A stretch of 19,865 nt of DNA, from the UHGV virus genome UHGV-1448388; one strand, given 5' to 3'. Within the stretch, counting starts at the first letter, position 1, and each line of letters opens with the position of its first letter. This DNA is from a virus. The notes below the pieces were generated by a model, which saw nothing but the letters and a program-made list of their open reading frames with translations, made no database searches and had not been told where the DNA came from. A program made the translations under genes and the position numbers. Shown piece after piece: positions 820 to 3,828 of this stretch.

Positions 820-1743
820 TCAGTAGTTATGTACTGAAGGAGGTAATTCTTTATTCTTAAGTCTCATCCATGCGGAAAGATTCGTTGGTCCGTCTGGCTC
901 ATTAATATCAACATCTCGTGTATGGTTGATTAAAACATCTCTCGCCATTCCGATAACATACGAGAATTCATGACCGTAGTCGTAGCATCTGCCGGAATAG
1001 TTCGATTGAATTTGTTTTAGCGCCTGATACAGTTCGCGGAATAATGCCTGTGAGCGGTTGGCATAATCCCATAGCCATACAAGGCTGTTTACTTCTTTTG
1101 CAGAAAGCTCGTTGGTTTTCTTCTCTTGTTTGCCAATGAACTCACCTTCAAGTGGAACTCGAGCTGCAAGTGATAGTGCTTCGGTAAACTGCTCCTCACT
1201 GATTTCTTTGTACGAACATCCAAAATGGGATTTCAGTGACGACCACATGGTGATCATCGCCTTAGCCTGTTTTTCTTTTGGCAGAGACTGACCGCGACTC
1301 ATGACGAGTTGTTTAATGGCTTCCTGCTGTTCAGTGGTGATTTTACCCTGCAACGCCTTTTTAGCTTTGCGTGGGTTAACTACATGGCCTTTAGTCCAGT
1401 ACTCGTAGAGCACATCGTCACACTCTTCCTGATACTGGATTACCTTGTCGCGGATTTCAGGGCGGACTTTGTTAGGACTGATGCTGTTCAACCAAGCTGC
1501 CAATTTTCGTAAAGCCATACAAATCATGGCTTGCACCCCACCGGCAGAAGGTATGGTGATTTCCACCATACCATTCGAGAATCGTTGAGAAATCTTCTTA
1601 TGTTGAGATTTCCAGTCTAGCCCCATTCCCTCAACGATAGGTTTCATTGGGGTATACGGTTCGCCGTTGTGATTGACAACATAAAGCTCTGCGCCGTGGA
1701 ATGGTACATTGATAGTAGATACTGCTGTTGCTATACTTTTCAT
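820..1743 (-). CDS. ant: Antirepressor Ant (AntA/AntB-type N-terminal domain)
   Basis: 307-aa ORF. N-terminal motif HNGEPYTPMKPIVEGMGLDWKSQ...IQYQEECDDVLYEYWTKG is characteristic of the phage antirepressor family. Position downstream of arc and upstream of the tailspike matches the P22 immI layout. AGGAA Shine-Dalgarno upstream. Confidence 0.7.
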   Translation of the reverse strand: MKSIATAVSTINVPFHGAELYVVNHNGEPYTPMKPIVEGMGLDWKSQHKKISQRFSNGMVEITIPSAGGVQAMICMALRKLAAWLNSISPNKVRPEIRDKVIQYQEECDDVLYEYWTKGHVVNPRKAKKALQGKITTEQQEAIKQLVMSRGQSLPKEKQAKAMITMWSSLKSHFGCSYKEISEEQFTEALSLAARVPLEGEFIGKQEKKTNELSAKEVNSLVWLWDYANRSQALFRELYQALKQIQSNYSGRCYDYGHEFSYVIGMARDVLINHTRDVDINEPDGPTNLSAWMRLKNKELPPSVHNY

Positions 1744-1806: not shown

Positions 1807-2010
1807 TCAACTTTCTGCTCTATCAGTTATATCTTTCCCTTCGTATACTTCACCTATATTGCTAATGCTGGCAGAACATCCAAGATGCTTGTATCTTATG
1901 ATGTCCAACACGCAGTCACTACACAGCATCCGACCTGTTTCTTTAGAGTAAATGTATGTTTGATCAGCGTCTGATTCGCTAATGCCGCAGAAACAACATT
2001 CTTTACTCAT
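1807..2010 (-). CDS. Small Cys4 zinc-ribbon-like protein (67 aa), hypothetical
   Basis: ORF with CxxC (C5, C8) and CxxC (C30, C33) pairs. Strong GAGGGGG Shine-Dalgarno about 7 nt upstream. Its ATG overlaps the arc stop codon (ATGA), implying translational coupling. Confidence 0.45.
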   Translation of the reverse strand: MSKECCFCGISESDADQTYIYSKETGRMLCSDCVLDIIRYKHLGCSASISNIGEVYEGKDITDRAES

Positions 2011-2147: not shown

Positions 2148-2252
2148 TGCATCCTCCGCTGTATGTGGTACGCATACATAGTATTTAGGTACGCATTGAT
2201 AGTCAATAGACACCTACATATCCTGTGGTAAAAAATTATTCAGGGTGTGCCG
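2148..2252. promoter_or_regulatory. Divergent immI-type promoter/operator region (candidate back-to-back sigma70 promoters with repeat elements)
   Basis: Plus-strand candidate: -35 TTGATA (2196-2201), 17-bp spacer, -10 TATCCT (2219-2224). Minus-strand candidate: -35 TTGACT (plus 2201-2206), 17-bp spacer, -10 TACTAT (plus 2178-2183). The two -35 hexamers lie within the palindrome ATTGA-tag-TCAAT (2195-2207). Direct repeats GGTACGCAT at 2167-2175 and 2188-2196 (21 bp apart), and TGTGGTA at 2164-2170 and 2224-2230. Confidence 0.45.
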
Positions 2253-2533: not shown

Positions 2534-2782
2534 ATGGCTAGAGATGATCCGCACTTTAACTTCCGTATGCCTTTGGAAGTAAGAGAAAAATTGAAATTAA
2601 GAGCCGAGGCTAACGGAAGGTCAATGAACTCTGAGTTATTACAAATCGTTCAGGATGCGCTATCAAAACCATCACCGATTGCAGGTTACCGTGACGAAGC
2701 AGAACGTATGGCTGATCAGCAAGCAGAAATTGTTAAGAAGATGGTGTTTGAAACCCTGAAAAAAATGTACGAGACCAGATAG
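2534..2782 (+). CDS. mnt: Mnt repressor (ribbon-helix-helix)
   Basis: 82-aa product MARDDPHFNFRMPLEVREKLKLRAEANGRSMNSELLQIVQDALSKPSP... closely matches P22 Mnt as I recall it. GGAG Shine-Dalgarno 7 nt upstream. Transcribed opposite to arc-ant, as in P22 immI. Confidence 0.85.
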   Translation: MARDDPHFNFRMPLEVREKLKLRAEANGRSMNSELLQIVQDALSKPSPIAGYRDEAERMADQQAEIVKKMVFETLKKMYETR

Positions 2783-2824
2783 GTCAATGTTTGTTCGTTG
2801 ATATAAAATAACAAGGTATACATT

Positions 2825-3424
2825 GTGATTGAGATAGGCGTTATGGCCATCCTGAATCAAGAGCCAGGAAAAATTGAAAACGTTTTTTCTGACATATCAA
2901 CATCTATCGAGCGTTCAATTTCAGACTTTGATCGCAGTCATAGCGGCTCTTTGTCTAAAAAACAGGCTTCTGAAGCTCTTAGCAAGATCTACTGCGTTAT
3001 GTCACCTGTAGAGGAAGTTTGCAAAAAGTACATTACATTCATTGACATATTAAGTAATGGTACAGAAGAAGATATTTCCTCACTTAATATTCAACATGAC
3101 GATGTAGATATGTTGAACGATCAGATATCTAAGCTTGATTATGGTATCGCGAAACTGTTGTATACCTTCTTCATCGCTGAGAACAGCGATGCGTGGAAGC
3201 CCCATATGTCAACTCTTACAACAATGAAAAACCACTCAATCAATACTTTTATAGAATACAAAAGGCTAACAATGGGGCTTGTGACGCTAGCAATGCAGCA
3301 CATACCACTATCATATGCTGAACCTGAAGAGTTCACTGAAGAAGAGTTGGCTTCCTTCAAGAAATCAGTTGAAGATTCACATAAAAGATTTGGCATGGAA
3401 GCACCAAAATGGAAAACCGCATAA
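2825..3424 (+). CDS. Hypothetical acidic protein (199 aa; possibly 193 aa from ATG 2843), first gene of an AT-rich accessory cassette
   Basis: Intact ORF in AT-rich DNA. Start is GTG at 2825 (AAGG 8 nt upstream) or ATG at 2843. The 3' end overlaps the next gene by 16 nt. Acidic composition; no family I recognise. Confidence 0.5.
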   Translation: MIEIGVMAILNQEPGKIENVFSDISTSIERSISDFDRSHSGSLSKKQASEALSKIYCVMSPVEEVCKKYITFIDILSNGTEEDISSLNIQHDDVDMLNDQISKLDYGIAKLLYTFFIAENSDAWKPHMSTLTTMKNHSINTFIEYKRLTMGLVTLAMQHIPLSYAEPEEFTEEELASFKKSVEDSHKRFGMEAPKWKTA

Positions 3425-3828
3425 GCATTGTTGTAGATGCAGCGGCTGGACCATTAGAACAATACTTTGCGAAGGCTCTTGCAAACTACAAAAACAGAGG
3501 CACCGTTTCAGCTTATCTTGGTAAGATTGGTGGGTTTGAGAGAAACCATCACGCCGTCTTATCGGGAATTTACAAGTCGCACATCAGGATCCCTGGAGTA
3601 GATGATCCTTGGTTAAGAACAACGCCAATACATCGTAGAGTTAGCGATAACTTTTTGATATTTGCGGTACACAACACATATCCAATTCATATCCAGATCA
3701 TTGCTATCATTAAACCTGATGGTCATGAGAAGGTAAAAAAACTATTGCCAGCCATCATTGATATAACTGAAAAAAGATTCCAATCTCTAAATGAGAGGGA
3801 GCTTAACTCGTTGATTTCATACAAATAA
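3409..3828 (+). CDS. YafO-family toxin-like protein (139 aa)
   Basis: Motifs ANYKNRG, FERNHHAVL and NFLIFAVHN...IHIQIIAIIKPDGHEK...EKRF align with E. coli YafO (FISYKRDG, FERVAHIHL, AHLVYCQG...AWLLIAILKPEPHK...AEAFRMRF) as I recall it. Basic protein whose start overlaps the upstream acidic ORF. Confidence 0.55.
   Translation: MENRISIVVDAAAGPLEQYFAKALANYKNRGTVSAYLGKIGGFERNHHAVLSGIYKSHIRIPGVDDPWLRTTPIHRRVSDNFLIFAVHNTYPIHIQIIAIIKPDGHEKVKKLLPAIIDITEKRFQSLNERELNSLISYK

Follow-up and report, generated by a model that had tools for sequence, protein, structure and literature searches.

We have analysed a stretch of DNA of 19,865 nucleotides (nt), UHGV virus genome UHGV-1448388, whose sequence matches that of Enterobacteria phage CUS-3 at 100% identity; CUS-3 is a Lederbergvirus prophage carried by Escherichia coli K1 strain RS218. 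The window means this whole stretch, and positions are numbered along it. In its immI region, between arc and the antirepressor gene ant, lies an open reading frame (ORF) of 67 codons on the minus strand (1807-2010), which we call ORF67. ORF67 is very probably a real, translated gene that is absent from the CUS-3 annotation. The explanation that best accounts for the observations is that ORF67 is an immI accessory gene, that its product is a zinc-binding domain (ZBD) of the ClpX type, that the gene is the cargo of a cassette, and that it modulates the host protease ClpXP; taken as a whole, this explanation has in our judgement slightly less than an even chance of being right, and its parts are of unequal strength.

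The P22 immI region serves as a textbook example of a regulatory circuit, and CUS-3, a phage of the E. coli K1 that causes neonatal meningitis, has itself been the subject of study. What is new here is an unannotated third cistron in a P22-type immI operon, a cassette slot between arc and sar, the recurrence of ClpX-ZBD-like cargo in that slot, and a correction to the literature on arc. The ORF67 family is narrow, and its mechanism is inferred only.

The reading frame between arc and ant

The first-pass annotation, made by a model from the letters of the window, had described at this place a 67-amino-acid (aa) ORF with two CxxC pairs, a strong ribosome-binding site (RBS) and an ATGA overlap with the arc stop codon, and all of these features are present. 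The ORF listing contains the frame with an ATG start and a TGA stop, the latter included in the coordinates, and its translation is MSKECCFCGISESDADQTYIYSKETGRMLCSDCVLDIIRYKHLGCSASISNIGEVYEGKDITDRAES. The CxxC pairs are C5/C8 and C30/C33, with 21 residues between C8 and C30, and there are two further cysteines, C6 and C45. On the minus strand the junction with arc reads ...AAGAGAGAGGGGGTGATGGTATGAGTAAA (in longer form ...AGAGAGGGGGTGATGGTATGAGT), so that the arc TGA and the ORF67 ATG share the bases ATGA, here and in every lineage examined. The Shine-Dalgarno (SD) sequence GAGGGGGTGAT, recognised by sequence and duplex energy at 2014-2024 on the minus strand, lies inside the last arc codons, 7 nt upstream of the ATG when counted from the end of the G-run. 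It pairs with the 16S anti-SD sequence at -12.4 kcal/mol and is the strongest SD of the operon, the corresponding energies being -9.5 for the site of arc and -4.2 for that of ant. At the other end of the frame, the stop codon (1807-1809) has two bases in common with the hairpin of the antisense RNA gene sar (1777-1808), and the gap of 63 nt between ORF67 and ant is the usual sar interval. One variant of the junction was seen on a single 2.5-kb contig, where a 112-aa protein (P0001) is an in-frame Arc-ORF67 fusion, ...SLKRGGDGMSKECC...; the fusion is due to a small indel within the G-run at the SD, and may be a sequencing artefact or a rare natural product.

ORF67 matches phrog_7150 with E = 3.4e-50, residues 1-67 aligning with profile positions 1-67 of 67, and all its PHROG matches are families of unknown function. 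The exact protein is found in 4,875 blocks indexed in a public assembly collection; at least 1,000 contigs were counted, with a constant slot, and the gene order arc-ORF67-ant occurs in 10 of 10 distinct contexts among those listed. Close relatives are few, forming five clusters at 90% identity. Divergent relatives were recovered by profile searches and by probing with the sar hairpin: two Salmonella types, P0014 and P0019 (68 aa), and a type from E. coli, Shigella and Klebsiella, L167 (63 aa). Other searches yielded little. Among 50,697 phage records, tblastn with ORF67 and with P0019 as queries found CUS-3 only, and a profile search of genome contigs with the ORF67 family alignment found no relatives. 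A HMMER search of 1.84 billion representatives gave one true relative, P0014; its remaining matches, long eukaryotic proteins of tetratricopeptide (TPR) or immunoglobulin (Ig) repeats over which the score piled up, were rejected as spurious.

The argument for a gene draws on four lineages (CUS-3, L167, P0014 and P0019 types). Protein identity to ORF67 is 25-37% and nucleotide identity 44-50%, and in all four the frame lies between arc and ant, overlaps the arc stop with its ATG by 4 nt, and ends at the sar hairpin. Residues M1, C5, C6, F7, C8, G9, S22, K23, T25, C30, C33, I37 and E57 are invariant, and phrog_7150 matches the relatives at positions 1-42 with E-values of 5e-08 to 1.8e-09. The sense frame is the only one that is always open across the lineages. 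Two opposite-strand ORFs, at 1669-1974 and 1799-1951 on the plus strand, were rejected as candidates, since no antisense frame stays open in all lineages. Conservation as a coding frame in relatives, on which the first-pass annotation had staked its claim, is thus found at identities as low as these. Natural variants within lineages spare the finger core, and their changes cluster in the first loop and the tail.

The first-pass annotation had also proposed the ratio of nonsynonymous to synonymous substitution rates (dN/dS) as a check, and here the outcome was uninformative. Deep pairs are saturated, with dS of 1.2-1.9 or not computable, and the sole close pair that was usable gives a dN/dS of about 1.2, with residues 20-47 identical in that pair. 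As dN/dS offers no usable proof of purifying selection, we rely instead on the conservation of frame, motif and slot. The ratio in the close pair and the existence of rare C5Y variants both count against our explanation.

The CUS-3 GenBank record labels positions 1745-2234 only as 'bsq2; boundary sequence', leaving arc, sar and ORF67 unannotated. The Prokaryotic Genome Annotation Pipeline (PGAP) of RefSeq calls arc and omits ORF67 in strain NU14 and in every complete genome listed, and those GenBank submissions that do call ORF67 name it 'hypothetical protein'. The omission is an example of annotation pipelines overlooking small phage genes. It was stated in the epsilon34 genome paper that CUS-3 is apparently without arc and must control ant otherwise than P22 does (PMC2629481). 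An arc gene is nonetheless present at 2007-2147 on the minus strand, so that this conclusion does not hold for CUS-3; it codes for a 46-aa ribbon-helix-helix (RHH) repressor of the Arc family (Pfam Arc 3e-08, above the gathering score) and is the gene annotated by PGAP in strain NU14.

Fold of the finger and the ClpX zinc-binding domain

ORF67 had been described as a Cys4 zinc ribbon. The Cys4 zinc-finger mini-protein stands, and the ribbon fold probably does not: the second CxxC lies at the N-terminus of a predicted helix, which favours a treble clef over a zinc ribbon, and the best matches are to the ZBD of ClpX. We consider it probable, on moderate support, that ORF67 is a divergent ClpX-type ZBD, and hence a treble-clef finger. 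The protein most likely has a predicted ZBD-like domain over roughly residues 1-42 and, behind it, a disordered tail that evolves fast.

Profile comparisons point in this direction. The Pfam family zf-C4_ClpX (PF06689) is the only or the top family for P0014 (E 0.086), P0019 (0.75), the L167 type (0.2) and the L083 type (0.0015), the last being a second kind of finger from the same slot; all of these are sub-threshold. Both ORF67 (6.7e-05) and the L004 finger, a third kind (1.2e-07), match phrog_5259, and the UniRef name of P0019 is 'ClpX-type ZB domain-containing protein'. For hhalign, a ClpX-type profile was built from phage sequences and E. coli ClpX N-termini, the search for homologues of the L004 finger having given one protein. 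The ORF67 family aligned with ClpX-type ZBDs at 88.4% probability (E = 2.8e-6, score 32.2), and with bona fide ClpX N-termini only at 80.1% (E = 1.4e-5, score 28.7). When the Cys columns were fixed and all other columns shuffled, 200 shuffles gave average scores of 12-13 and a maximum of 23-24.5, and none of the 200 reached the real values of 32.2 and 28.7. The ligand cysteines of the ClpX ZBD align with C5, C8, C30 and C33 of ORF67.

Structure prediction is compatible with the profile comparisons. An AlphaFold2 (AF2) model from a 6-sequence alignment has a predicted local distance difference test score (pLDDT) of 75-80 for residues 1-40 and a disordered tail, and is laid out as hairpin, hairpin and helix (strands at 19-21 and 28-30, helix at 31-42), the helix starting at the second CxxC. 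A first model, from a 4-sequence alignment, had a mean pLDDT of 55 and its fold search was uninformative. In both models, which are of moderate confidence, C30/C33 lie where a strand passes into a helix of 9-12 residues. In a Foldseek search the top rank went to a ClpX model, and ranks three to five to the ZBD crystal structures 2ds6 and 2ds5; for 2ds6_A and 2ds5_A the probability is 0.91-0.93, the target-normalised template modelling (TM) score 0.67-0.68 and the root-mean-square deviation 2.1-2.2 Å.

Several results weigh against the assignment to the ClpX type. ORF67 itself has no match in Pfam or NCBIfam, and its relatives stay below the zf-C4_ClpX gathering score of 27 bits (P0014 13.2, P0019 10.2, L167 12.0, L083 18.9). 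ORF67 alone, compared with ClpX by hhalign, reaches only 33%. The 6-sequence AF2 alignment held one true ClpX-type sequence, and the Foldseek E-values, 0.09-0.3, are non-significant, RING domains scoring similarly.

Searches of PDB sequences with ORF67 and with the family profile returned weak RING-finger matches only (E = 0.005-0.4), which are cysteine-driven and were set aside, and ORF67 has no Pfam match, even at E <= 10, with the finger families of Mu Com, P2 Ogr/P4 Delta and TraR/DksA. ClpX-type zinc fingers are also encoded by the E. coli phages PhiR44_2 (L054 1324-1656) and P88; that of PhiR44_2 is the C-terminus of a 110-aa protein beside a partition-like gene, and stand-alone ClpX-type fingers occur in other, unrelated phages as well.

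The arc/sar slot and the role of its cargo

The position of ORF67 is shared with other small genes. We probed IMG/VR with the sar hairpin and, among the matches listed, assigned the gene ending there to a type in 114 contigs, replicates being kept. Arc lies directly at the hairpin in 64 contigs, and the gene at the hairpin is unclear in 17. A cargo gene is present in 33 of the 114 sar-bearing contigs (about 29%): ORF67, intact in every case, in 14; the L077 type, a 73-aa soluble protein of non-Cys type (phrog_11805), in 10; the L083 type, a 74-aa Cys4 finger, in 3; the L127 type, an 89-aa membrane or coiled-coil protein (phrog_27312), in 3; the L004 type, a ClpX finger, in 2; and the L167 type in 1. 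ClpX-ZBD-like fingers account for 20 of the 33 cargo-bearing contigs and fall into at least three lineages with marginal mutual similarity. Of these, the L083 type is aligned with the ClpX ZBD by hhalign at 94.5%. The L004 type (WP_047668240.1, strain Z1323CEC0015, 60 aa), which PGAP names 'ClpX C4-type zinc finger protein', is the sole type above the zf-C4_ClpX threshold (7.6e-11, 42.2 bits) and matches solved ClpX ZBDs at 2e-07. A further cargo class, ending in ...LDAAKKSKQ (L060), was seen in the same slot.

The boundaries of the slot are fixed. In every cargo-bearing locus examined the C-terminus of Arc reads ...SLK(R/K)EG(V/I)x(V/I), even where Arc is otherwise of the P22 type, and in all of these loci the cargo ATG overlaps the arc stop and the common TGA uses the first two bases of the hairpin. 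Furthermore, CUS-3 and the O157 prophages agree at about 97.6% of positions in ORF67 and its sar flank, whereas the adjoining arc is far more divergent. The matching arc 3' ends, the shared stop and the flank identity set against arc divergence indicate that the moving unit consists of the arc 3' end, the SD, the cargo and the sar hairpin. We therefore regard the arc/sar junction, with good confidence, as an exchangeable cassette slot with fixed boundaries within a P22-like operon organisation. Unrelated cargo in the slot, namely the 73-aa soluble protein and the 89-aa membrane protein, means that the slot does not dictate one function, and this counts against our explanation.

What the ORF67 protein does is the least firm part of the explanation. 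In P22, Pant is active briefly after infection or on loss of Mnt, and not in the stable lysogen. By analogy with P22 biology and with the annotation of epsilon34, ORF67 would be the middle cistron of an arc-ORF67-ant transcript started at the Pant-like promoter, would be translated in coupling with arc, and would appear together with the antirepressor in one short burst, at a time when neither Mnt nor Arc represses. The product would be a small zinc-binding protein with ligands C5, C8, C30 and C33, a predicted treble-clef C4 finger, and its fold similarity suggests that it may work as a free ZBD through protein-protein contacts.

The ZBD of ClpX forms a dimer, is a hotspot for the recognition of substrates and adaptors, and is needed for degradation of lambda O; lambda O, SspB, RssB and trigger factor bind its hydrophobic pocket, which includes F16 and I46 (PMC7804408). 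Of these pocket residues, F16 corresponds in the alignment to F7, a residue conserved without exception in the cargo lineages, and I46 falls, by gapless extension of the alignment, on Y40 of ORF67, a position held by F or L in relatives. ORF67 could accordingly act in either of two ways, by rivalling the host ClpX ZBD for the substrates and adaptors that dock on its pocket, or by pairing with the ClpX ZBD itself. The outcome would be a shift in ClpXP substrate choice while Pant is on, for example sparing a phage protein or blocking a protease-triggered host response. That ORF67 is a free ZBD decoy modulating host ClpXP is a tentative proposal, drawn by analogy, which we hold possible rather than likely. 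The slot recurrently recruits mini-proteins that resemble the substrate-recognition domain of ClpX, and this offers a testable hypothesis on phage control of host proteolysis.

A wider form of the proposal is that P22-like and lambdoid prophages possess a family of interchangeable ClpX-ZBD decoys, held in a dedicated slot of the antirepressor operon, that reprogram ClpXP. Their expression would come in the opening minutes of infection or once Mnt is lost, and the decoys would sequester ZBD-docking adaptors or substrates, or cap the ClpX ZBD. We think this wider form rather doubtful. Were it true, Ant or other phage proteins might be stabilised, or protease-triggered toxin-antitoxin and abortive-infection responses blocked, and the fingers would be phage-encoded modulators of a new class, acting on the specificity of an AAA+ protease. 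Without a real link to ClpX, ORF67 would be an ordinary small phage accessory gene.

Two further results fail to help the ClpX link. In the literature searched we found nothing on phage-encoded mimics of the ClpX ZBD, on ClpXP in connection with antirepressors, or on genes in the arc-ant interval, and no link to ClpX. A 178-aa gene of the ClpP family (PF00574), present in 33 of the loci fetched, directly adjoins mnt (L047 2967-3503, also L180, L184 and L187) in all loci of the Salmonella type and in part of those from E. coli. We rejected this neighbour as specific evidence, since it occurs with the non-finger L077 cargo and is absent from many finger loci, the CUS-3 window included.

Two alternatives keep the gene and give it another role. 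In the first, ORF67 is a regulator specific to immI, whose finger binds the C-terminal domain of Ant, Arc, Mnt, the prophage repressor or the duplex of ant mRNA and sar, and so tunes antirepressor output. Its location fits such a role: ORF67 lies between arc and sar/ant in every context, co-transcribed and coupled to arc, its stop codon is inside the sar hairpin, and P22_AR_C is present in every Ant downstream of it. The partners, however, vary. Identical ORF67 occurs with three types of Ant N-domain and two types of Arc, which speaks against a partner tailored to the Ant N-domain, and the L083-type finger pairs with two Ant types. Moreover, the 64 sar-bearing loci in which Arc is directly at the hairpin work without cargo, and the slot takes unrelated proteins, a membrane protein among them. 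Direct translational coupling to ant is precluded by the 63-nt gap and the separate RBS of ant, and there is no similarity to the Com, Ogr/Delta and TraR/DksA fingers. We judge a dedicated immI regulator unlikely.

In the second, ORF67 is cargo for host takeover or anti-defence, its finger binding a host target other than ClpX, and the Pant operon would have been chosen since its promoter fires right after DNA entry. An exchangeable cassette with diverse cargo, the narrow and mosaic distribution of ORF67, and a fast loop and tail around a conserved core (with the dN/dS of about 1.2 in one close pair), as in arms-race proteins, are what such a role would lead one to expect. Yet a PADLOC scan of all cargo types gave no match to defence models, and ORF67 was without a characterised homologue in our searches. 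In addition, the three separate finger lineages of the slot all resemble the ZBD of ClpX and not arbitrary folds; their likeness to one domain points towards the ClpX pathway. A target of this other kind seems to us improbable, and modulation of ClpXP remains the reading we prefer.

The further possibility that ORF67 is a decaying or selfish ORF without present function, open in CUS-3 through recent common descent only, draws on its distribution. ORF67 DNA is found in 373 of 5,426 complete E. coli genomes. Of 70 records at least 99% identical, six were listed, all with the intact 204 nt; in 304 records identity is 95-99%, and the full-length ones among those listed are 97.6% identical over 205 nt and of the frameshifted type. 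The frameshift, a +1 insertion in the T-run after codon 6, is that of O157/O145 prophages and is a point against ORF67 as a functional gene. Omission of the ORF by both PGAP and the CUS-3 authors, the dN/dS near 1 in one pair, and the 99-100% identity of most CUS-3-type copies could be read in the same way. Against decay, the frameshifted copies sit in otherwise degraded prophages (arc is truncated in Sakai), ORF67 has the strongest SD of its operon, and lineages at 44-50% nucleotide identity keep the frame, the start overlap, the stop position and 11 invariant residues (those from C5 to I37), both CxxC pairs among them. We regard decay as very unlikely. The idea that the 204 nt act as a non-coding spacer or leader, an RNA affecting ant mRNA structure or sar termination, can be dismissed despite the 'boundary sequence' label in the CUS-3 record and the overlap of the 3' end with sar, for conservation between lineages is at the level of protein and not of nucleotides, which effectively refutes it, the antisense and off-frame readings are closed, and Rfam sees sar alone.

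The immI operon and its likeness to known systems

The genes around ORF67 form an operon of the P22 type. Downstream, ant (820-1743, minus strand) codes for a 307-aa antirepressor with the domains P22_AR_N (1.1e-45) and P22_AR_C (5e-29) and is annotated in CUS-3. The first-pass annotation had taken ORF67 to stand in place of sar, and this is where it erred: the sar gene is present at full length at 1745-1812 on the plus strand (Rfam RF00262, score 84.6 bits where the gathering score is 43, E = 1.7e-17, covering model positions 1-68 of 68), is homologous to the annotated sar of phage epsilon34, and runs with its 3' end over the stop codon of ORF67 and the sense codon before it. An Rfam scan of the interval detected sar and nothing else. 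The sar hairpin (1777-1808), delimited by the hairpin probe and the slot survey, is the right-hand boundary of the cargo slot. A Psar-like promoter (1709-1737, plus strand; TTGATA, 17-nt spacer, TATACT, with an extended -10 TG and 10 of 12 matches) has the position of the annotated Psar of epsilon34. Since full-length sar is retained, ORF67 is a cistron added behind arc, and the sar/ant junction that follows it is otherwise like that of P22.

Upstream of arc-ORF67-ant, a Pant-like promoter (2178-2206, minus strand; TTGACT-17-TACTAT, 9 of 12), recognised by its match to the consensus only, corresponds in position to Pant/arcO of epsilon34. Two mnt-like RHH genes in tandem on the plus strand diverge from the arc operon. 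The first (2253-2510; Pfam Arc 3.4e-10), which the CUS-3 record calls mnt, consists of the Arc domain alone, and only the second (2534-2782; Pfam Arc 1.1e-27) has the C-terminal domain Repressor_Mnt (2.5e-15). Between the Pant-like and Pmnt-like promoters the sequence GGTACGCAT occurs twice, 21 bp apart (2167-2175 and 2188-2196), beside a palindrome at 2160-2178; these copies and the palindrome are candidate Arc/Mnt operator half-sites. Further along the plus strand, a 199-aa protein (phrog_18235) is encoded at 2825-3424, with a 16-nt overlap with the gene for a 139-aa YafO-family toxin (3409-3828; Pfam 3.2e-11), and the two may be a toxin-antitoxin-like pair inside the ant moron.

Two observations concern this module elsewhere. 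Downstream of identical ORF67 (L180, L184 and L186, at about 2766-3695), the Ant N-domain is P22_AR_N, KilA-N or Bro-N with a common P22_AR_C, a variety that amounts to domain shuffling within ant. In prophage Sp6 of O157:H7 Sakai (L005 1596-3251) and in an O145 prophage (L006), the complete mnt-arc-ORF67-sar-ant module, with arc truncated in Sakai, lies in a lambdoid tail gene cluster, between the gene for minor tail protein L and the tail assembly genes.

Among known systems, Mu Com, which is a Cys4 zinc finger that binds RNA, and the leader ORF icd of P1 are small proteins encoded just upstream of tightly controlled phage genes that they tune. By analogy ORF67 has a similar placement in a phage regulatory operon, but there is no hint of RNA binding for ORF67, and between it and ant lie 63 nt and a separate RBS for ant.

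The closest likeness of the protein is to the ClpX ZBD (PF06689; PDB 1OVX, 2DS5-2DS8), with which it shares the pattern CxFCG ... (I/L)CxxC(V/I), a spacer of 18-21 residues, the hairpin-hairpin-helix layout (predicted for ORF67) and the second CxxC at the helix N-terminus. Unlike ClpX, ORF67 is a stand-alone protein of 67 aa without an AAA+ module; the first loop has 3 additional residues, Ile stands in place of the conserved fifth cysteine of ClpX (C43), and ClpX has no counterpart of its C-terminal tail. The L004- and L083-type fingers resemble ORF67 in slot, ATGA overlap, TGA at the hairpin, size (60-74 aa) and finger motif. In sequence, however, L004 matches ORF67 by BLASTP with E = 0.024 and L083 matches the ORF67 family by hhalign at 3.8%, so that the three are separate lineages, joined only via ClpX-type profiles and phrog_5259.

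Finally, the operon as a whole compares with those of P22 and epsilon34. Common to them are an Arc-family first cistron, a divergent mnt, an Ant with P22_AR domains, and a sar gene that covers the ribosome-binding region of ant and has its promoter inside the start of ant. CUS-3 differs in its shorter, divergent 46-aa Arc, which ends in ...SLKREGVMV, and in having two mnt-like genes. The arc genes of P22 and epsilon34 run up to the sar hairpin and abut the sar/ant junction, whereas in CUS-3 the 204 nt of ORF67 intervene as an extra cistron. The immI circuit of CUS-3 is thus that of P22 with one gene added.

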